Origin: Candidatus Saccharimonadota bacterium
GTDB lineage: Bacteria > Patescibacteriota > Gracilibacteria > BD1-5 > UBA6164
Direction of reading: 5' to 3'
Assembly (NCBI GenBank): GCA_004563595.2
Contig: CP042461.1
Location: 270,001-302,000, forward strand
DNA length: 32,000 nt
Shown here: positions 1,875 to 29,578 of the stretch, in pieces
Layout of the letters: each line of letters begins with the position of its first letter
Numbering within the stretch: the stretch's first letter is position 1
The notes under the pieces: generated by a model
Databases searched by the model: none
The model's input: the letters and a program-made list of their open reading frames with translations, nothing else
What the model was told of the DNA's origin: nothing
Translations under genes and position numbers: made by a program

Positions 1875-1953
1875 GCGAGGGTAACATAAAAGAGTGAGTG
1901 TACTAAGGCTTCAACCCTTGGGTGTGCGAGTTCAAACCTCGTCCCTCGCTCCA
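1875..1953 (+). tRNA. tRNA-Gly with anticodon UCA, the decoder of the reassigned UGA codon. CCA is encoded.
   Basis: Acceptor stem GCGAGGG/CCCTCGC. T arm GCGAG-TTCAAAC-CTCGT. Anticodon stem TAAGG/CCTTG with loop CTTCAAC (anticodon TCA at 1911-1913). Discriminator T at 1950, then CCA. G1:C72, C2:G71, G3:C70 and U73 match bacterial GlyRS identity elements. Short 5-nt variable loop. The D arm is atypical (no GG). Confidence 0.85.
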
Positions 1954-3382: not shown

Positions 3383-4636
3383 TTATGTTCATGAATATTT
3401 TCTTTCTTCAGGAACAAAGTTTTCAACTGTATCAATTGTCTTATTTAAGAGATATGACAATGGTACAGTCAGTAAAAAACCAATCTTCATTTGAGCCGCT
3501 ATTTCTAATGGGATTAACTCATTTGTTTGTGCTACTGAGACAAAAATTATTGCTACAGTACCGTTGCAGGCCCCGGCAATAGCCATGCTTAAAAGAGACA
3601 TTTTATTAAGTTTATTTTTACCGTAATCAGAGTTAGGATCTACATATCTTTGACAAATCAGGCCTCCAAAGTAAATACCAATTAGTTTTCCTCCAAAACC
3701 ACCAACAAGAGCTATGGTTGTAAATACTCCCCATGATAGAGGATCGAGTACATTAATACTCCCTGCTACAAGAGCAAATGGGAGTAATAGCCATAATGCA
3801 AGTGATTCTGTTTTTTCAATTACTAGCTGTTTAACATTATCAGGTGCAAAGATCATCGGAAGACACCCACCTAGAATTGGCTCAATACCATTAAAGCCTA
3901 GAAGGGATGTATTAAAGATGCAAAGAGTGACCCAGAAAGTCGGTGATTGAATAGTAACATCATATGTTTTTCGACCTATTATTTTATATGTTTTTTGATC
4001 TTTCTCTTCCTCTTCCTTGAGTTCTGTTACAATGACAGGACTAAATTTACCAAAAAAATAGGCAACCATCAGGACAAGCAAACCAGGAATAGAGAGGGTT
4101 TGTATCTGTTCTACTCCTTGAGAAAATAATCCAATCATGGAAATAATCCCTAGAAGATCATCACCAACAGCTAACATCGTTAGTGCACTTATCATTACAG
4201 TAGTTGATATATTTTTTGCCATTTTTGCTGAGCCTATTGCCATTGGTACATCAGTTGCCATACTTCCAGCAGATGCATATAATGCTACAGCTAATCCTAT
4301 ACCTCCTATAAAGTAAGCAAGAGAAGTTGTTAATATGAGAGGAACAATTACACCTCCTAATATAGTACCAATAATCAGAGGTCCAGCTTTTAAAATATCA
4401 TTAACTTCAATTTCAGCACCTAGTCGTAAGAAAAATACCCATAAGCCAGTAAGCATCATCCAAAAATGCACAGTTGGATGATGTATTACATGAGTGTATG
4501 TTTCTCCATACTCTCCAAAGAAACCATTTTCACTCAAGCCGTAAACGATGAGTGAAAAGATCAAAAAATAGATAATAACGGGTATCTTAGAGTCCAATAA
4601 TACAATCCCTTTTTTTTTGTCATTTGTATGTAACAT
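3383..4636 (-). CDS. Na+/H+ antiporter, NhaA-like (divergent). TGA-free, probably acquired.
   Basis: 415-aa standard-code ORF ending in TGA (3391-3389). In table 25 it gains two residues (G,T) and stops at TAA 3385-3383. NhaA-like motifs: FFLRLGAEIEVNDIL, SMATDVPMAIGS, VGDDLLGIISMIGLF. About 40 Gly codons, none of them TGA. SD GAGGGA upstream. Hand-counted stretches are G+C-richer than neighbouring genes. Confidence 0.75.
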
Positions 4637-10465: not shown

Positions 10466-10747
10466 ATGGCAGTATTGGATGCGGAAAAAAAATTAGAAAT
10501 AAACCAGGCTCTTATAAAAGTATTTGAAGAGACCGGGTACTTGCAAAAATGCTTATCGTCAGATGGCTTTTGCTGGAAGAATTCTAAATTAAATATTCAT
10601 GAACCTGTTATGCAACAAAAACTTGTAGTTGTATTAAATAAGACTTGTTTTGATGGGCACCATGAATTGTGTTCATATATCGTACATGAGTTTATTAGTA
10701 CTATCGAAGAATGTTGTAAATTAAAAAAAGGAGAGAAAAATGATTGA
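10466..10747 (+). CDS. Hypothetical Cys/His-rich protein (93 aa), TGA-free. Its stop is a TGA inside an ATGA overlap.
   Basis: SD AAAGGAG sits 8 nt upstream. The ORF ends at TGA 10745-10747, overlapping the next gene's ATG (10740). In table 25 it would read through to TAA 10763-10765, adding 6 aa. Confidence 0.6.
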   Translation: MAVLDAEKKLEINQALIKVFEETGYLQKCLSSDGFCWKNSKLNIHEPVMQQKLVVVLNKTCFDGHHELCSYIVHEFISTIEECCKLKKGEKND

Positions 10748-11102
10748 AAGTTTATCTGAAAATAACCCTAAATTGTTTGCTAGAGAAGGTGTTGACTCTA
10801 ATCATTCTATGTGTGGAGAAGCTATCGTAGAATCATTAATGTCTGAGATCGATACTAAAGGCCTTAAAGTTATGAAGCTGTTGGATATGGACAAGCTTCT
10901 TAATACAGAACTTCATCAATTAAGAGCTTTAATAGACTCACCTTTTAAATATTGTATTATAGAGGGGAAACAAAGCACACAATTTGATAAAAAGTATTCT
11001 GTATATAACTTATCTTCTATGGAAATAGTTGAGGGTCCTGAATATCAAGGCTATATAGGCGACTATATTATTGCTTTTGACATACTTGCATGGAACAACT
11101 AA
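10740..11102 (+). CDS. Hypothetical protein (120 aa), TGA-free, translationally coupled to the upstream gene
   Basis: SD AAGGAGAG upstream. All 7 Gly codons are GGN. Ends in TAA and is followed by a terminator. Confidence 0.65.
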   Translation: MIESLSENNPKLFAREGVDSNHSMCGEAIVESLMSEIDTKGLKVMKLLDMDKLLNTELHQLRALIDSPFKYCIIEGKQSTQFDKKYSVYNLSSMEIVEGPEYQGYIGDYIIAFDILAWNN

Positions 11103-20950: not shown

Positions 20951-20995
20951 TATGTCTCATTATAAATACTATTATTAACAAATAATATTTAAAAT

Positions 20996-21727
20996 ATGGA
21001 ATTAAAATCTTATAAATGTGCGAGGGAAGTGCCAGATAAATATTTATGATCTTTTGTGGATTCTCAGATTGAGTGTTGGTGAAGTAGTCCTTTTAATCAG
21101 TTTAAAATTTGTACAAACCTTCATTGTTTAAGAAGTTATTCTATAGATGAGGTATGTGGAAATATTTATTCATATAGGTCCTGATATATTTGAAAAGAAT
21201 TTATATGTCCAAATTGTAACTCTGATACAAGTTACATATATGAAAAATGAATTCATTTAAAAATTATTAGGAACTATATTAATAGTTATATAAGTATTAC
21301 ACTCGTTATTTTGAATAACAATAAAGTAGAATGATTTTGAGTAATATCCAAAATATCACTTCATGAGATCATACAAAAGGATTTATGAATTATGAAGTGA
21401 GGCTATGATCCAGATTATTTGTTACAGCTTCTCTCAGAAGAAAGTGGTAAGTTACATAGCTCTATGTCAACAAACTTTGTATATTTTCATCACATATATA
21501 TATCACCATTTTTAAAAAAGTGAAATATGTCATTTGATGTATTAAAAAAATTATTTTTATTAAATGAGGAATATAAAGGGTTGCCTGTAATTTTAGAAAT
21601 GAAAGATCAGACAGATATATATGAACTATTTTTGAAGATATGATTTAAAAATTTGTTAGATGATAAACAGGGAAACAATATTCTTTACTTAGAAGATTAC
21701 TCGACAGTGATTCAGTATTTTTCTTAA
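20996..21727 (+). CDS. Hypothetical protein with an N-terminal Cys-rich (zinc-ribbon-like) region and a GNAT-like C-terminal segment
   Basis: 243 aa in table 25. C..E....C, CTNLHC and CPNC motifs. The C-terminal ...IYELFLKIGFKNL resembles the end of GNAT motif B. Confidence 0.5.
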
Positions 21728-21754
21728 TTATTTTATTATATAATTTATACTATT

Positions 21755-22597
21755 ATGCTATCAAACAATGTATGAAGTGCACCAATGCAAACTAAATGAG
21801 GAACTATTGAGAAATGTGATGTAAGTAAGTTAACAGAATGAGATATTAAAAAAATACAAGAAATAGAGCAAGATTCATGGGGTTATTTTGTATGAGAGTA
21901 TGTTTCATGTAACTCATGTAAAAATATTGATTCAAAAGCGGATATATATAAAGATAAAGACTCGAACTATTCAAATAAATCTATTGCTGAATTAGAAAAG
22001 ATTTATTGATGTGATGATATTCATTGTACCTCATGCTGATGAGAGACTCAGTTTTTACGGGGAGAAGAGTGAGTCAAAGACATAAAGTCTAGGTTATATG
22101 ACAGCAAGGATTGATATGTGTCTGTATTAAAGAATAAAGTTTGAGAAATTATGTGATGTGCATATTGATATGTAGATACTTTTGAATGAGCTTTTGAAAA
22201 AGATCTGAGTTTTAGTTTTTCAAAAGAATTTTTACAAAAATATGACTCACTTAGAAATGAAACTGTATTTATGGTATCATGAATTTGTATTGAGGAAAAA
22301 TGTAAAGGTATTGATGATGTTTACAATTTAATAAGGGGGTTTTTCAGCTCAGTTGATAATAAGTACGATAATATTTTATGAGTATATGAGTCTATTGTAT
22401 GAACTTTAACATATGATCTTTTCATTAAAATATGAGGCCAAAGATTATTATTGCCTGAAAATGGAAGACATTTTTACAACAAAGATCTTACACGTATGAA
22501 TACCATTACTGATGTTACTTTTCATAAGGGCTTAGTACAAGATTATAAAAAGCTTATAGATGTACCATTTCGTGATCTAATAGCAAAAGGGAGATAA
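21755..22597 (+). CDS. Hypothetical protein, possible GNAT-like acyltransferase with an inserted CxxC...CxxC zinc ribbon
   Basis: 280 aa in table 25. ...IQEIEQDSWGYFVGEYVSCNSC...HCTSCGG..., SVLKNKVGEIMGCAYGYV and VSGICIEEKCKG are GNAT-like strands. The call is weak. Confidence 0.45.
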
Positions 22598-22706
22598 GAG
22601 AATAATATGCAGATAAAATAAATGTGAAATAATATGATTTTTGAATATAATGGAATTCTTCAATATAACCAAATGTAAGAAAACTTAATTTTTTTTATTT
22701 AAAATT

Positions 22707-24803
22707 ATGTCCATATTCATATTATTCCACATTATTTTTGTCAGTGCACTATTTTTATTGTGATTTTTTGTTTATAAAAAATATAGGCAGACAAGTGGGA
22801 TATTTTTCTTAAGCTTTTGTTTGCTTTTTTGAATTTGGTATATCCTCTATACAATCATCTATTCGGTACTTTTATGAGAATATTATACTCTCCATTTGAT
22901 GCGAATCATGTATGCAATGTCTTTTACTGCTATTTATAGCATGCTGTTTTTTGTATTATTTTTTAATGTAAATAAGAAAAAAACGAAGATAATTCGTAGG
23001 TGCATTGGTCTCTCCCTTTTTATGATATTTTTATATGTTTCAATGACATCTCTTTTTGTAGATCATATAGAGTATATTGAAAGTAAGGAATATTATTTGG
23101 AAGTCTATTGACCTTTATACAAAATACTAGCAACTTTATATCTTGCGTTTTTACCAATATTTTTTGTTGCATCTTATTACAAAATAAAATCTCTTACATA
23201 TATCAATAAAATGAGATTAAAATACATTTGTATTGGATTTACTTTATTTATGATTTTCTCTCTTTTATTTTTAATAATTTTTCCATTATTCTGAAAATTT
23301 TATTTTATTGAGAATATTATATTTTTTATAACCCCATTTATTGGTTTTACTTTTTATTCTACATATACGTATAGGTTCTCAGATGTAAAAGTTAAAATAG
23401 GGAGTATTTTAGTATTCTTATTGTCTGCTTTTTGGGCAATGGTAATGGTAAATTTAATAAATTATTTTTATAGTAATTTATGAGAAAATTATGCAGCACT
23501 ATGGGGACTTAACTCTAGTTTTTGAGCAGCTGAAGTATTATTAGGTATTCTTTTTTATATTCCATTAAATAAATATTTTAGTAATATTTTTTTAAAGAAT
23601 ATGAAAGGGGATAATTTTTGAAAAAGACTGTGAAGATTAAAAAAATCTATACCGTTTATTACAAACCTCTCAGATCTAAATTCATATTTATGAATAAAGT
23701 TATTAAAGTATTTTAGAATAAATAATGTAGAGGTAAAAATATTTAATAAAGATGAAAAGAAAAAGTCTGTAATATATAAATTTTTTTCCGAAAATACTTT
23801 AGATGATATTTTCCTCAATGAATTAGTGTTCATTGAGGAAAACAAACATAAGTTTAATTATTCTTTATTAAAAAATGAGATTGATGAAGGAGTTTTTTTG
23901 GTGTTCCCAATTTATGATAATAAGAAATGACTGATATGAATTTTTACACTTTGAAAGAAACCGTTTGGGGACTTATATTCTAATAATGAAATAAATCAAT
24001 TAAAGGAATTGATAGTATTTCTAGAAGGGCATTTAAAGTATATAAAAATTTATTGAAAAATAAATGATTTAACTGTGAATTTAGATAAAAAAATTGATGA
24101 GAAAACGATGGAATATAATAACCTTATCAATAAACAAAAAGAGTTTATTTCTATGATTTCTCATGAAATAAAATGACCGATAGCAAGTTCTATATTCCAG
24201 GCAGATTGTATACTTGATGATGTTGGGTCATGAGACTGTAGTAAAGAAGAACTTACAAAAGAGCTTACAATCTTAAATGAGCAACTTTTAAAATCATGAG
24301 ATTTAATTAACAAACTATTCTCTGTTCAATACTACGATTCAAATAGCTTTGACTTATTTAAAGAAGAGATTAATTTAGATTATTTATTTGAATGAGAAAT
24401 AGAAGTATACAAAAAACTGCATCCTCATATAGAATTTAGATTAGATATAGAAGAGGAGGTTTGATTTATCAGAATTGATAAAGTTCAGTTTAAACAAGTT
24501 ATTGATAATCTCCTTACTAATGCAGTAAAATTTATTACCCACGATAAGGGGAAAATTCATATAAACCTTTGCATGAAAAATAAGGAATTAATAGTTGAAA
24601 TTATGGATAATGGGAAAGGGTTTAAACACATAGATATAAGTACTATCTTTGATAAATATTCAACTTGAAAGACTTCTATGATTTGATTATGAATGGGACT
24701 ATATTTATGTAAAAGAATTGTGGAATTACATGGCGGTGAGATAAAAGCAAGTACGTCAAAAGAACTTTGATGAGCAAAATTTGAAATAAAGATACCAGTA
24801 TAG
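22707..24803 (+). CDS. Sensor histidine kinase with a multi-pass membrane N-terminus
   Basis: 698 aa in table 25. H-box FISMISHEIKGPIAS, N-box LLTNAVKF, G-boxes DNGKGF and GLGMGLYLCKRIVELHGGEI. Ends in TAG. Confidence 0.9.
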
Positions 24804-24816
24804 TATTTTTTAACAT

Positions 24817-25527
24817 ATGAACAATATGAATATATTGATTATTGAAGATGATGTCTTTTTAGCTGCAAGATTAAAACAAGTTTTTGAAAAAAAAATTATA
24901 TCAAATAGAATAAAAATTGTAAATTCATATATAGATTTTATAGAAGAAATAAGTATTTTAAGTTCATATGATATTGTTCTTACTGATATAAAATTATGAA
25001 ATGAAAAACAAAAAAATTGAATCAATATAGTAGAAGTAATTCGTAGAAATCAAATCTCAATACCAATCATTGTTATGAGCTGCTTTTCAGATACGGATTG
25101 GATTGAAAGAGCATTTAATACCTGAGCAAATGACTATATAATAAAACCATTTCGATTAAAAGAATTAGAGCTCAGAGTGCAAAATTGGTTTAAAGCATAT
25201 TATATCCCATCACAGCAAAATACAGCTACAGTTCTGGAGTATTGAGGGCTATCATATAATATTGAAGTAAATGATTTTTTTTATTGAGAAGAAGTACTAG
25301 TACTGACAAAAAAGTCTAAATATATACTTTCTATCTTTTTTTCGAAACCCGATATTTTAATATCAGAGGATATCTTTATAGATAAAATATGGTGAGATGC
25401 ATTTTTAATAAAAGATAGAAACTTGCGAGTTTGTATGTTACGATTAAAAAGAGGATTGGAGCCATATTGAATCGATCATTGGATTATAAATATCAGATGA
25501 GAAGGTTATATTTTAAAAAAAACTTAA
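24817..25527 (+). CDS. OmpR/PhoB-family response regulator, cognate to the upstream kinase
   Basis: ILIIEDD, VLTDIKLG and KPF motifs, with a winged-helix C-terminal domain. The alternative start is ATG 24826. Ends in TAA at 25525-25527. Confidence 0.88.
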
Positions 25528-25613
25528 TTTTTGTACTTTAATACATTGATATTTTGATATTATTTCAAGAATAATGTATAATATATAATAATAGTATTTA
25601 AATAAATAAAAAT

Positions 25614-26162
25614 ATGTTAGAGAAAGAAATAAAGATATTAGATATAAATATTGATGAGGTGTGTAAAAAAATAGAAAAATTATGAGGTACCAGGACATTT
25701 GATGGAATTATACATGATGTATATTATGATTTTCCAAATGATGGAAAGAAACATAAGATGGAAGGGAATAAAAGAATGTTTAGAGTAAGGAAAAAATGAG
25801 AAACACATTTATATACTATAAAGAATAAGAGAAAAGATGTTGAAGAGGTAGAAAACGTTGTTGCAAAAGATGAACATGAAATGGAAATAACGGATGTTGA
25901 TAGTTTTACCGAAGTGTTAGAAAGATATGGAATGATCAAAACAAGGGAGAAAATAAAGTATAGAATCTCATATCAACTTGCTTGAGCAGAATTTGACATT
26001 GATAAATATGATGATATTCCTGCTATTCTTGAAATAGAAGAGGATAGTGATAAGAGTATAGAATTCTGGGTAAGAAGACTTGAACTGGATGCCTATGAAC
26101 AATTACTTGGATGATCAAGAAAATTATTTAAACATTATGGGGTTCCATATCTACATTTATAA
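25614..26162 (+). CDS. CYTH-domain protein (CyaB-type / triphosphate tunnel metalloenzyme)
   Basis: EKEIKILD (ExExK), ...MFRVRKKG..LYTIKNK..., KTREKIKYRI and AILEIEE follow the CYTH strand pattern. 182 aa. Confidence 0.8.
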
Positions 26163-26165
26163 TAA

Positions 26166-26196
26166 AAAAGCTATAAAATAATTTTATAGCTTTTTT
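26166..26196 (+). terminator. Intrinsic terminator
   Basis: aaaagctataaaa / ttttatagctttt hairpin followed by a T-run. Confidence 0.7.
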
Positions 26197-26204
26197 ATTA
26201 TAAA

Positions 26205-26222
26205 TGTAACACTTTTGTAACA
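26205..26222 (+). promoter_or_regulatory. Two direct TGTAACA boxes spaced 11 bp apart, upstream of the AdoMetDC-like gene
   Basis: TGTAACA at 26205-26211 and 26216-26222. This is the same heptamer as in the 20916-20950 operator cluster. Confidence 0.5.
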
Positions 26223-26303: not shown

Positions 26304-27191
26304 ATGAATGCAGTACTAGAACGTCCACAACAAATAGCTGAGATAAAAATAAAAACAAATGAAATCATAGATTTAGCACCACAAATCTTGAGACAAAGAC
26401 TACGAATGGAAGGAAATTATTCTATTCAAGTTGATGGAGATACTGTTTCTAGGTATTTAAACAAATTATCAGAACTTTTAGGTATGGAGATTACTCATGG
26501 ACCTGAAATACAAAATGATGCGGAGATAATAAACCCTATTCATAAAGGTTTTGAAGGAATAATGATGATGTCTGGTGCAAGTACACATGCATATACTTGG
26601 GAATTAGGGAATTTCTTTTCCATTGATGTATATTCATGTAAATCATATGACATGTCGGCTATACTTGAATTCACAAAAATGTTTTTCGAAGTGACTCGGC
26701 TTCGATATCAACCAACGAATTCTCGTGATGGTACCAACAACTTGACTTTTGATAATAATCATGTAGAAAAAATGGCTAAATCAAATATATTTGATTTAGC
26801 CCCAAAAATATTGCGGCAACGGACACGAATAGAGGGAACATATGTAATTGATATTAGAAAAGATACTCTGAAAAAATATATGGTTGAATTATCTGAATTT
26901 TTAGGCATGCACATTACACATGGACCTGTTATTCAAAATGATGCAGAAATAGTCAGTAATCCAATACATGTAGGGTTTAAGGGTGTTATGATGTGGGCTG
27001 AGTCTGGTACACATGCATATACATGGGAGAAAGAAAAGTTTTTTTTAATTGATGTATATTCATGCAGCTTATATAATACTAAAATGGTGCTTGAATTTAC
27101 TAGAAACTTTTTTCAGGCTACCACAATTGGATATGAAGCAACGCATTCTCGTAATGGTCCAAATAATTTAACTATTATGCCTATTTCTTGA
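26304..27191 (+). CDS. Tandem-duplicated S-adenosylmethionine-decarboxylase-like (pyruvoyl-enzyme fold) protein. TGA-free, with a fossil TGA stop.
   Basis: 295-aa standard-code ORF. Two repeats (nt 26367-26747 and 26790-27173) share about 76 of 128 residues by hand alignment. Each carries THAYTWE....IDVYSC, which resembles ESH.(S/T)IHTWPE....(D)V(F/Y)TC of prokaryotic AdoMetDC. Glu-Ser is present only in repeat 2 (27000-27005). All 17 Gly codons are GGN. The TGA at 27189-27191 sits just before a terminator. Table 25 would extend the ORF to TAA 27261-27263. Confidence 0.6.
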   Translation: MNAVLERPQQIAEIKIKTNEIIDLAPQILRQRLRMEGNYSIQVDGDTVSRYLNKLSELLGMEITHGPEIQNDAEIINPIHKGFEGIMMMSGASTHAYTWELGNFFSIDVYSCKSYDMSAILEFTKMFFEVTRLRYQPTNSRDGTNNLTFDNNHVEKMAKSNIFDLAPKILRQRTRIEGTYVIDIRKDTLKKYMVELSEFLGMHITHGPVIQNDAEIVSNPIHVGFKGVMMWAESGTHAYTWEKEKFFLIDVYSCSLYNTKMVLEFTRNFFQATTIGYEATHSRNGPNNLTIMPIS

Positions 27192-27209
27192 ATTGCATAC
27201 ATGGAAAAC

Positions 27210-27246
27210 AAAAAAATACCTTACGTTTTAGTAAGGTATTTTTTTA
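27210..27246. terminator. Bidirectional terminator between the AdoMetDC-like and VTC genes
   Basis: ataccttac / gtaaggtat hairpin flanked by an A-run and a T-run. Confidence 0.75.
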
Positions 27247-28035
27247 TTTCATTTCATTTTTAATATTTTCAATTTCTTTCATTGTATCTTTAAATGTATT
27301 GTATTTTTTTGCAAGTCATGAATAGACGACTCAAAGCGAATACTTACTACAAGATTTTGCTTGTTTAAAACCATGTTTTTCCATTATCTCTAGACTTTTA
27401 CAGTTTGTTTCAAGAGATTTACTTTCGATAATTACAAGGTTTTTTAAATTTGTTTCTGATGCATCTTCATCTCTGAGATCAAGAGTCCTAATATCAAAAT
27501 CAATAGTAAGTCTTTCTCCTCATAATCTATCAACGAGGGTAATTCTTTTATATCTTGTTTTAATAGCAGGGAAGATCTTTGGAACCTTTACAGTACTATC
27601 ATACATACTTTGCCATACTCATTCGAAAAATCTTTTTTTTCATTTTGTCATTTTCCCGTGTTCATCACTTGGAAATTCATACCTATATTTACTTGTGATA
27701 CCATTTTCTTTTTGTTTATATTCAAAGAATGCAAGATCAGAATCTTTATAGAGTCTTGTTCTGACTTTTGTTCTTGCTTTTTGCTTATTTTCATGTTGAT
27801 TATAGAAAAAATAATCATCTGTATCCATATAAACATTATCGTATGAAAATACTTTTTTATCTACGATTTGCAAAACTTGAAAATTTTCTTTGAGTTCTTC
27901 TAACACTTCTGAAAATTGTTTTCAAGTGAGTAGAAATTTTCTATCAATTCTTTTTAAAAAGCTTGCTGACGCGTTTAATTCAGTCAGAGTGATAGATGAG
28001 AAATTATTTAATTTAGAGTCAAACGTTGTTGCCAT
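27244..28035 (-). CDS. VTC-domain (polyphosphate-polymerase-like, CYTH-superfamily) protein
   Basis: 263 aa in table 25. RIDRKFL, Y.N.YMDT, R.K.R.R.Y, EYK.K, RITL....ER.T.D, IIESK and SKYS follow the VTC/TTM strand pattern. It contains track ORF 27640-27906. Confidence 0.65.
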
Positions 28036-28139
28036 TTTGTATTTGTTTTAAAAAATAATTGTTTTTTTGTAAGCTAAGATGTCTTATATAAAAATTATAT
28101 CATATATATTTTTTTTGGTCAAAAATTTGAATACCTTTT

Positions 28140-29516
28140 TTATATTTTCATAAGTATGAAGTACATTCCTGCTGATATTAATCATGAAACGGGGAGTGTA
28201 ATTATCCATGCAAGAGCTATATTTTTGATCATCGCTTTTTCTATATACTCTTTATCTTTTCCTTTTTGTCTCTTGATATGTTCTCTTAATAATCATACTC
28301 AGAAAATTCACCCAATTGCAATATGTGTTGAACTTACTGGAAGTCATAATTGACTTGCAATGAGTACAGTAACAGCAGCAGATAACGCTACACAAAAAGC
28401 TCTAATTTGGTTTAATTTTGTAATTTCTCAACCAACTGTTTTAATTAATCTTGCTCAGAATACACTGAGTCATACTACAATTCATAATGCTCAGAGAATC
28501 ATAATCCACTTTTCAACTGATGCCTTTGATCATTGAATATGTTCAATCCCATTTCAAAATATATCATTAATTGCTGCAAGTGGTCAGATCGCATTTGCCA
28601 CATCATTTGCTCCATGTGCAAATGAGAGAAGTGCTACTGAACAAATGAGAGGGACATTAAATAAAGTATTAATAAAACTTTTTGAATTTTTAAAGTAAGA
28701 GGATTGTTTTTTATAATGGAGAATAAGAGCTATATAGACAAGTATTCAGATAACGACTCAAGCAAATAATGCAAAACTTGGAGTGATTATATTCGCTAAA
28801 CTTTCATTTGATTTTAAGAGGGGTTTTAAACCTTTTATTAAAAGGTATATTGAGAAAATAGCTGACATAAGTCATACATATACTGGAACCCATATTTTTG
28901 CAGCATCTCATCTGGATTCTTTCTTGAGAATATTTCTTCTGATAGAGAGTAATAATATTGCTGCTATAGTTCATCAGAGAACAGGAGATATGACCCATGA
29001 TGCTGCAATTTTTCCTACTACAATCCAATTTACAATTCAAAAACCATAAGAAATTATTCAGGCTCATAGGAGTGCTCATATGATAGAGTGAGTTGCTGAT
29101 ACAGGAGCTTTAAAATAGGTAGCGATATTAAGCCAAACAGCAGCTCATAATAACGTAGATAACATGATAGCAACTAAATCCATTTGGTTTGTTATTTGAT
29201 CACCGTTAATGATTCATCCTTTGATAGTATCTACAACATCTCAACCAGCAATGATGGCTCCACTTGCTTCAAAGATAGCTGCGATAATAATTGCTCAAGT
29301 GAGAGTGATAGCTTTTGATCATACTGCGGGTCACATATTATTAGCAACGTCATTTGCTCATATATTTATTGCCATATATATTCATAATATAGCTGCAAAA
29401 AAGAGGTAAAAACTTGTATTTCCCCCTTCCATAATATATACCCATGCAATTGCTCACAGAAGAAACACTGCTGCGATGATATATTTATAAACCTCTTTTT
29501 TTTCCACATTAAACAT
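28140..29516 (-). CDS. PiT-family inorganic phosphate transporter
   Basis: 458 aa in table 25. Duplicated GANDVAN..GP signature, PVSATH/PVSSTH motifs and C-terminal IALAWIITLPVSGLISA. More than 30 TGA=Gly. Track ORFs here are antisense or off-frame. Confidence 0.9.
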
Positions 29517-29578
29517 TGGTTCCTGCTTTAAAAATTAAATAATACTTAATTATGGTATCATACTAAAAAAATAATGTA

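Follow-up and report, generated by a model that had tools for sequence, protein, structure and literature searches.

Candidatus Gracilibacteria bacterium 28_42_T64 is the source of the 32,000-nucleotide stretch of contig CP042461.1 analysed here (hereafter the window), as named by an exact protein match to QFR38887.1. The window carries a gene, A9Q91_01490, that joins in one reading frame two copies of a module resembling S-adenosylmethionine (AdoMet) decarboxylase (AdoMetDC). The gene is a lineage-specific tandem duplication of a small AdoMetDC-fold protein (~120-140 amino acids), whose parent subfamily has kept the pyruvoyl-precursor Ser and the catalytic Cys of the class 1b enzymes, with Tyr in place of their His68. 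We lean, with modest confidence, towards a product that is a single-site intramolecular pseudo-dimer of this Tyr-type subfamily, linked to a sensor kinase and response regulator locus.

Two homologous halves in one reading frame

The conserved frame encodes 295 amino acids under the standard bacterial code (table 11) and 319 if its TGA is taken as sense and the frame is followed to the TAA at 27261-27263; the GenBank entry QFR38887.1 ('hypothetical protein A9Q91_01490') has the longer form, with Gly at the TGA position. The family profile A3 matches the protein twice, with 133 and 138 bits, and alignment of the two halves gives 78 identities over 135 positions (58%, E-value 2e-59). A first-pass annotation of the DNA had proposed that the frame holds two copies of one module, each ending in THAYTWE-x6-IDVYSC. 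Both the duplication and the motif were recovered in our alignments, with module limits slightly longer than proposed (26346-26747 and 26769-27173), and the Shine-Dalgarno-like element that it had placed upstream could be read directly before the ATG (Table 1). An assembly artefact as the source of the duplication is ruled out by the DNA identity of the halves, which is only 66%, and by the status of the genome as a closed and curated one.

Assignment to the AdoMetDC fold

The AdoMetDC-fold assignment is supported by sequence profiles and by a predicted structure. Pfam AdoMet_dc (PF02675) matches the whole protein with 63.8 bits (E-value 2e-17), and each half taken alone scores above the gathering cut-off of 25 bits (Table 1). 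PHROG 3125, 'S-adenosylmethionine decarboxylase', matches at 1.4e-6. Against the PDB, the family profile retrieves the enzymes of Aquifex aeolicus (2iii, 6e-7) and Thermotoga maritima (1tlu, 9e-6), in an alignment that pairs Ser63 with Ser, Cys83 with Cys and His68 with Tyr. An AlphaFold2 model of module 2 alone, built on a 124-sequence alignment, reached a predicted local distance difference test score (pLDDT) of 87.7 and a predicted template modelling (TM) score of 0.80, with secondary structure elements in the order E-H-E-E-E-E-H-E. Its best PDB matches were 1vr7, 1tlu, 1tmi and 2iii, with target-normalised TM-scores of 0.72-0.78; root-mean-square deviations from the bacterial AdoMetDC were 2.2-2.8 Å and E-values 2e-6 to 8e-6, and next in rank came spermine synthase, through its AdoMetDC-like domain, and AdoMetDC of eukaryotes. 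The resemblance to prokaryotic AdoMetDC suggested in the first-pass annotation is thus found again in the profile scores of both halves and in the superposition of the module 2 model on the T. maritima and A. aeolicus enzymes.

A Tyr-type active site

In the alignment with T. maritima SpeD, Ser234 of module 2 falls on Ser63, its counterpart in module 1 being Ala92; Cys112 (module 1) and Cys254 (module 2) fall on Cys83, and Tyr97 (module 1) and Tyr239 (module 2) occupy the position of His68. This pattern agrees with the initial reading of the gene, which had seen a Glu-Ser pair in the second copy only (Glu233-Ser234, 27000-27005), S-G-A-S-T-H in the first, where Ala92 stands at the Ser position, and Tyr for the catalytic His in both. 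The Trp that follows is not succeeded by Pro in either module, which read Y-T-W-E-K or Y-T-W-E-L against H-T-W-P-E in the classical enzymes.

An exhaustive profile search returned 896 representative clusters at E <= 1e-3, mostly proteins of ~118 amino acids. Ten residues are conserved at 90% or more in this family (R22, R24, E28, P59, G75, S85, G86, Y90, W92 and C105 in module-2 numbering), and the residue preceding the Ser is variable (E, D, T, S, N or K). Every member of the 124-sequence alignment has Tyr in the place of His68, and this family-wide conservation makes it a trait of the family rather than a quirk of this gene; on the alignment evidence it defines a large uncharacterised subfamily of the AdoMetDC fold. 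Residues S63, H68 and C83 are described as essential for self-processing and are expected to be conserved in bona fide AdoMetDC as well as in the arginine and ornithine decarboxylases derived from it, and the Pro after the Trp, fully conserved in bona fide AdoMetDC, marks the true enzyme (Li et al. 2023). Since neither His68 nor this Pro is present, the subfamily cannot be assigned to the characterised AdoMet, arginine or ornithine decarboxylases. Module 2 possesses 10 of the 10 family-conserved residues. Module 1 has eight, retaining R30, R32, E36, P67, G82, Y97, W99 and C112, and is without S85 and G86, the Ser-Gly pair.

Hosts, neighbours and fusion partners of the subfamily

At least 476 family loci were counted in GTDB species-representative genomes with a mid-family alignment, in Actinomycetota, Saccharibacteria, Peregrinibacteria, other candidate phyla radiation (CPR) bacteria and DPANN archaea. 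Homologues also occur in 53 viral contigs; a tblastn search of 50,697 phage records with module 2 and with a viral-contig homologue gave no match in cultured phage. When the GTDB genomes were scanned with an alignment of the Gracilibacteria sequences described below (the X clade), nothing was found and no further Gracilibacteria orthologue came from genomes; a metagenome scan recovered a standard-code sister group only, with no further tandem forms or X-clade members. An older tandem clade, with complementary losses in its two domains, exists within the subfamily.

Neighbourhoods were taken from 80 genomic loci (L005-L084). A gene for a protein of ~260 amino acids, whose family weakly resembles Acetyltransf_5 (N-acyl synthase), the autoinducer synthase LuxI and LasI, lies near the family gene in 41 of the 80 and immediately downstream in 36. 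The family gene and this LuxI/NAS-like gene look like an undescribed conserved pair in Actinomycetota and Saccharibacteria, and some family proteins carry the LuxI/NAS-like domain as a C-terminal fusion. GGDEF-EAL proteins are encoded near the family gene in 38 of the 80 loci, and in Saccharibacteria a response regulator gene comes first, followed by the family gene, then the LuxI/NAS-like gene and last the histidine kinase gene. The LuxI/NAS-like gene is often accompanied by GGDEF-EAL proteins or a histidine kinase. Other proteins of the family end in a SET domain, which has an AdoMet-dependent methyltransferase fold (P0016, P0019, P0023, P0030, P0047 and P0068; assigned by Pfam in P0016 and P0030, with E-values of 4e-13 and 6e-11, and by eye in the other four), and endonuclease VII is another fusion partner. 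A literature search on the subfamily with GNAT or kinase partners found nothing relevant. Polyamine genes (speE, speB, speY, aguA/B) are found near the family gene neither in the window nor in the 80 genomic loci; as the first-pass annotation had remarked, no spermidine synthase gene is adjacent, and speE was seen neither in the 32-kb window nor beside the relatives. One reading of this company would give the family a substrate of the 3-amino-3-carboxypropyl type or an amino acid, within a pathway by which a small molecule may often be made or sensed.

In 15 viral-contig loci a gene of the saccharopine dehydrogenase family lies directly downstream (11 loci) or next but one (4 loci). Most homologues in the viral contigs L100-L136 (IMG/VR) read HWKESGMHIYxWD...DIYTC, which is the S-G-x-H-x-Y-x-W pattern of the window gene, and an aldehyde dehydrogenase gene is nearby in nine viral-contig loci.

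The locus in three Gracilibacteria lineages and the age of the duplication

Two relatives allow the duplication to be placed. The metagenomic contig L003 has the order response regulator, CYTH-domain gene, a single-module orthologue with the motif AESGTH, then convergent VTC-domain and PiT genes; its neighbouring genes are 80-92% identical to their counterparts in the window. The third lineage, L090 (20% G+C, code 25), has a single-module orthologue between the same histidine kinase and response regulator, which are 48-51% identical to those of the window. The four X-clade modules are monophyletic with 99% bootstrap, in a tree that does not order the two window halves and the L003 module. The single module that L003, a close relative, carries at this locus shows the duplication to be a recent event, specific to one lineage. 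The window histidine kinase is also homologous, including its N-terminal multi-transmembrane sensor region, to the Saccharibacteria histidine kinase that accompanies family members.

Between the window and L003, synonymous divergence (dS) of the neighbouring genes is 0.8-1.25, with a ratio of nonsynonymous to synonymous divergence (dN/dS) of 0.04-0.11; for the X copies dS is 1.0-1.3, dN ~0.3 and dN/dS 0.25-0.33. Identity between the single-copy orthologues of L003 and L090 is 63%, but only 50-52% between the L090 protein and either window half, which indicates that both halves sped up after the duplication. By these estimates both halves are evolving faster, yet under purifying selection.

The gene stands between a CYTH-domain gene and a convergent VTC-domain gene followed by a PiT phosphate transporter gene (Table 1), a phosphate/polyphosphate-type neighbourhood that is kept in L003. 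A perfect AT-rich palindrome upstream and the terminator downstream bracket it as a separate unit, and an analogous upstream hairpin is present in L003. Just 5' of the sensor kinase are two paralogous Cys-rich genes homologous to the N-terminal domain of P0092 (E-values 1e-7 and 2e-4), a 583-amino-acid protein in which this domain is fused to a tandem AdoMetDC-like module. By eye their C-termini were GNAT-like; neither Pfam nor the PDB returned any match, and profile-profile comparison with the LuxI/NAS-like family gave a probability of 0.2%, and the GNAT identity was dropped. PADLOC returned no matches to anti-phage defence systems.

Table 1. Features of the tandem AdoMetDC-like gene and its surroundings (window positions unless a locus is named)
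Feature	Position	Strand	Remarks
tRNA, anticodon UCA	1875-1950	+	labelled SeC by ARAGORN; Rfam tRNA score 45.4 bits
Two paralogous Cys-rich (zinc-ribbon-like) genes	20993-21727, 21728-22597	+	no known family; just 5' of sensor kinase
Multi-transmembrane sensor histidine kinase	22689..24803	+	linked to the gene in three Gracilibacteria lineages
OmpR-type response regulator	24814..25527	+	
CYTH-domain protein	25602..26162	+	upstream neighbour
AT-rich palindromic hairpin, perfect 27 bp	26152..26208	.	between CYTH and AdoMetDC-like genes; dG -28.6 kcal/mol, z -12
Shine-Dalgarno-like GGGGCAGGAAA	26293..26303	+	directly 5' of ATG; L003 has AGGTAGGGGAT there
Tandem AdoMetDC-like gene, conserved frame	26304..27191	+	295 codons + TGA; A9Q91_01490 / QFR38887.1
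Module 1, residues 15-148	26346..26747	+	Pfam AdoMet_dc 29.8 bits
Degenerate processing site Gly91-Ala92-Ser93	26574..26582	+	module 1; replaces Glu-Ser-Gly
Module 2, residues 156-290	26769..27173	+	Pfam AdoMet_dc 37.8 bits; AlphaFold2 pLDDT 87.7, PDB fold matches
Glu233-Ser234-Gly235, predicted self-cleavage site	27000..27008	+	Ser234 predicted pyruvoyl precursor; alignment counterpart Glu62-Ser63 in T. maritima SpeD; also aligned to the A. aeolicus enzyme
Tyr239	27018..27020	+	position of catalytic His68 of T. maritima SpeD; invariant in alignment A5
Cys254	27063..27065	+	position of catalytic Cys83 of T. maritima SpeD
Sole in-frame TGA	27189..27191	+	standard-code stop, Gly here; TGA ATT GCA T common to window and L003
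Extension if TGA = Gly	27192..27263	+	23 sense codons + TAA; +24 residues, 295 to 319 amino acids
Junction peptide across TGA			...TIMPISGIAYMENK predicted for the 319-residue read-through form
Bidirectional intrinsic terminator	27210..27245	.	shared with convergent VTC gene; dG -20, z -5.2
VTC-domain protein	27244..28047	-	convergent downstream neighbour
PiT (PHO4) phosphate transporter	28140-29534		
LuxI/NAS-like neighbour, example	L063 6345-7112		

Proposed architecture and a non-catalytic alternative

Since class 1b enzymes function as dimers, the two fused modules would most likely fold as an intramolecular pseudo-dimer. Module 2 alone would be able to self-cleave, between Glu233 and Ser234, and so to generate the pyruvoyl group; module 1, with Ala92 at this place, would be retained by selection as a non-processing structural and active-site partner. 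The loss of the Ser-Gly pair alone from module 1 is what is expected if one pyruvoyl site suffices in a pseudo-dimer. The protein would then have one active site, as in eukaryotic AdoMetDC, but with the live site C-terminal. The substrate is probably not AdoMet and more likely an amino acid or another 3-amino-3-carboxypropyl compound, and the function would be tied to the neighbouring sensor kinase and response regulator locus rather than to spermidine synthesis.

Several observations weigh against this proposal. His68, described as essential for self-processing, is absent from both modules, so cleavage may fail or need a different base. Single-sequence AlphaFold2 modelling of the full 295 amino acids reached a pLDDT of only 30, too low to serve as a model of the pseudo-dimer. 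A homologue of the LuxI/NAS-like protein is absent from the window, and since the neighbourhoods of the family gene vary across other CPR genomes, the functional context is only partly conserved. Finally, if the terminator works, the transcripts would end without a stop codon (see below), which is odd for a normally expressed enzyme.

The absence of His68 is also the starting point of the strongest competing explanation, which we regard as rather unlikely: that the protein is a pseudoenzyme or ligand-binding module that does not process itself, a description that may extend to the whole subfamily. With no pyruvoyl chemistry, it would bind AdoMet or a related metabolite and regulate partners such as the LuxI-like enzyme, the SET domains or the sensor kinase. 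Tyr replaces the supposedly essential His throughout the family, fusions join the family to AdoMet-using SET and LuxI/NAS-like domains, and module 1 remains under purifying selection without its Ser, so that the fold is evidently of use even in a copy without catalysis. A dead AdoMetDC paralogue that acts as a regulator has a precedent in the Trypanosoma brucei prozyme (PMC5201418). However, the Ser-Gly pair and the Cys are conserved at 90% or more across the family, which is hard to explain without catalysis or processing, and variation just before the Ser is also a feature of genuine pyruvoyl enzymes. Tyr is moreover a plausible catalytic replacement, since it serves as the proton donor in the pyruvoyl enzyme PanD.

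TGA avoidance and the origin of the gene

The organism reads TGA as Gly (code 25). Its G+C content is 28%, and long open reading frames (ORFs) are nearly absent under the standard bacterial code; with TGA as sense, ORF coverage of the window becomes about five-fold higher. Conserved Gly positions of window genes are written TGA, for example in the MurG motif TxGSTxGH. The tRNA with anticodon UCA bears the Gly identity set (G1-C72, C2-G71, G3-C70 and discriminator U73), and this acceptor stem and discriminator mark it as the TGA-decoding tRNA-Gly(UCA). A scan of the window with Rfam at gathering thresholds returned no family. The paper on the closed genome reports code 25, the absence of prfB (release factor 2) here and in all other BD1-5 genomes, and the absence of most biosynthetic pathways; polyamines and decarboxylases are unmentioned in it.

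The tandem gene departs from this usage. None of its 17 Gly codons is TGA, as the first-pass annotation had noticed, whereas the 27 remaining window genes use TGA for 311 of 585 Gly codons (53%; binomial P = 2.5e-6). The three lineages of the X clade have 0/17, 0/8 and 0/6 in-frame TGA among their Gly codons (0/31), and the genes that flank them in the code-25 lineages use TGA for 53-81% of Gly. TGA triplets are plentiful in the two other frames of the gene (8 and 20), so the avoidance is limited to in-frame TGA. Other code-25 members of the family do use the codon: 3 of 7 in P0197, while in the P0011 protein conserved Gly positions appear as Trp, presumably through a code-4 translation of TGA.

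A standard-code origin could account for such a pattern. The gene would be a foreign one, acquired by horizontal transfer, poorly adapted and decaying, with the missing TGA codons and the terminal stop as leftovers of the donor, and with duplication and fast divergence as signs of relaxed constraint. Outside the clade, the closest relatives share 46-52% identity with module 2 and come from standard-code, low-GC organisms; the frame ends on a standard-code stop; the protein has diverged from L003 3-6 times as much as its neighbours; the gene is bracketed by two strong hairpins; and another TGA-poor gene of the window (3383-4636) has its best non-self homologues in a standard-code bacterium. We nevertheless consider this origin improbable. 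The dN/dS of 0.25-0.33 corresponds to purifying selection, and the frame is intact in three lineages, although the flanking kinase and regulator are only 48-51% identical and dS is saturated; the conserved synteny with this two-component system points to a gene long resident in these genomes. The state of the neighbours' conserved Gly columns (TGA or GGN) differs at 18 of 71 between the window and L003 and is fully randomised between the window and L090, so that a passive leftover should have acquired TGA codons. Even in the most favourable case for the leftover, a gene that was all-GGN at the split of the window and L003 lineages, a two-state neutral model gives P = 0.0016, and vertical descent since the L090 split would lower this probability much further; a simple leftover from a standard-code donor is thus unlikely. 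Repeated acquisition of the gene is a possible source of the TGA absence.

Two other ORFs of the window are poor in TGA. A weakly NhaA-like membrane protein is encoded at 3383-4636 on the minus strand with TGA for 1 of 41 Gly (P = 1.5e-12); this lone TGA is the penultimate codon and resembles the stop of a standard-code gene with read-through of a single codon. Apart from the protein itself, the best homologues share 57% identity with it and are encoded in a standard-code bacterium, beside the genes for ProRS and GyrB; the window gene was probably acquired horizontally. The ORF at 10740-11102 (plus strand, 120 amino acids) has no TGA among seven Gly codons and only a sub-threshold Memo-like match. 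Between ~7000 and 10700 the window has only short ORFs (<=176 amino acids) even with TGA as sense, the rest being densely coded, and Rfam found nothing there at gathering thresholds.

Comparison with known AdoMetDC systems

The class 1b enzymes (SpeD/SpeH; T. maritima 1TLU/1VR7 and A. aeolicus 2III) are alike in fold and module size, and their cleavage-site Ser and catalytic Cys align with those of module 2. Sequence identity to the modules is only 13-17%, and the differences lie in the active site and in the context: His68 is Tyr here, the His after the Ser is Gly, Pro-Glu is missing after the Trp, a conserved N-terminal R-x-R-L-x-I-E is found instead, no spermidine synthase partner is present, and the chain contains two modules.

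Two AdoMetDC-homologous domains within one ORF are also found in the SpeD1-SpeD2 fusions, such as that of D. phosphitoxidans (Li et al. 2023, PMC10407285); in the V. vadensis-type fusion only one domain self-processes (PMC10407285). Both these fusions and the present gene can be offered as models for the origin of the eukaryotic enzyme. The SpeD1-SpeD2 proteins are heterotypic, combining a true SpeD with the ornithine decarboxylase SpeDC, are encoded beside speE and have a degraded C-terminal domain, whereas the gene described here is a homotypic duplication of one Tyr-type gene with a degraded N-terminal module, set between CYTH and VTC neighbours at a two-component locus.

The eukaryotic class 2 AdoMetDC (human, potato) is likewise a single chain of two class-1b-like halves with one processing and active site. 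The resemblance of the module 2 model to it is weak (1mhm, query-normalised TM-score 0.52, E-value 3.5e-3); its live site is N-terminal, not C-terminal, and its halves have lost their sequence resemblance, whereas those of the present gene are 58% identical. It also keeps the catalytic His (His243). The T. brucei pair of AdoMetDC and prozyme combines an active subunit with a catalytically dead duplicate paralogue (PMC5201418); the two are separate class 2 polypeptides rather than a class-1b-like fusion, and the activation by prozyme was demonstrated there by experiment, whereas the partnership here is a proposed one.

Similar in distribution are the SpeD-derived pyruvoyl arginine and ornithine decarboxylases (SpeDA and SpeDC) of CPR bacteria, DPANN archaea, Actinomycetota and phages, small AdoMetDC homologues without spermidine synthase that occur in the same kinds of organisms and have lost the AdoMetDC-specific Pro, as has the Tyr-type subfamily. 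They retain S63, H68 and C83, whereas the Tyr-type proteins have Tyr at H68, and they cluster with speY, speB, aguA/B or hss rather than with LuxI/NAS-like, GGDEF-EAL, histidine kinase and response regulator genes.

This comparison bears on the proposal that the gene serves polyamine supply, as a bona fide AdoMetDC or as one of the characterised arginine or ornithine decarboxylases (SpeDA/SpeDC type). Automated pipelines do call the relatives 'S-adenosylmethionine decarboxylase'; fold, Ser and Cys are all preserved; CPR bacteria, DPANN archaea and Actinomycetota carry SpeD-derived arginine and ornithine decarboxylases; and the viral Tyr-type homologue adjoins a gene of the saccharopine dehydrogenase family, which includes carboxyspermidine dehydrogenase and homospermidine synthase. 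Such a role is nonetheless very improbable. All characterised SpeD, SpeDA and SpeDC keep His68 and the present protein does not; the equivalog profile for true AdoMetDC (NCBIfam TIGR03330) gives 31.6 bits, far under its cut-off of 75.65; the Pro of HTWPE is absent; none of the polyamine genes listed above accompanies the gene in the window or in the 80 genomic loci; and the genome is without most biosynthetic pathways.

The 3' end of the gene

As the first-pass annotation had pointed out, the TGA lies just before a bidirectional terminator, and under table 25 the frame runs through this hairpin into the 3' end of the VTC gene. The hairpin was located at 27210-27245, with the TGA 18 nt 5' of its 15-bp A-tract/stem/T-tract structure, and the extension crosses it to overlap the VTC gene at 27244-27263. 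In the reading that we favour the terminal TGA is Gly, and the product is the 319-residue form; protein conservation ends after G-I-A. The next in-frame stop lies beyond the T-tract, so that with TGA as Gly terminated transcripts would carry no stop codon. In L003 the structure of the terminator is kept with a different stem sequence, and in L090 the frame ends on TAA. The stem ACCTTAC/GTAAGGT is identical in the window (27218-27237) and in L090 (1278-1298), and differs in the much closer L003; a repeated genomic element is ruled out, since the window has a single copy of this stem and the 152 loci together have only one.

It is conceivable, but the least probable of the explanations considered, that in-frame TGA avoidance and the conserved TGA 18-27 nt before the terminator couple the gene to the UGA-decoding state of the cell: translation of the gene body would not depend on the fate of tRNA-Gly(UCA) or of the code, and the terminal UGA could bring about termination if a UGA-reading release factor were present (a standard-code phage might supply release factor 2), a ribosome stall that lets the terminator form and leaves a non-stop transcript, or read-through of the hairpin that suppresses termination and extends the transcript antisense into the VTC gene.

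Significance for the AdoMetDC family

Eukaryotic AdoMetDC is thought to stem from the fusion of two bacterial-type subunits, one of which lost its active site. Such bacterial fusions as are known combine two distinct enzymes, while the gene described here is a like-with-like duplication caught early: its halves still share 58% identity, it has lost exactly one processing site, and a relative without the duplication is at hand for comparison. The steps of the fusion route become directly testable. The gene has also stayed free of the reassigned codon for a long time in a genome where TGA is Gly, which makes it a rare test case for codon use and avoidance; since it has no internal TGA, it should be expressible in Escherichia coli without recoding. 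Finally, it draws attention to a subfamily that is automatically annotated as 'S-adenosylmethionine decarboxylase' although it is without a supposedly essential His. The company this Tyr-type subfamily keeps, of LuxI-like, SET and signalling proteins, suggests a new chemistry or a new small-molecule signal.

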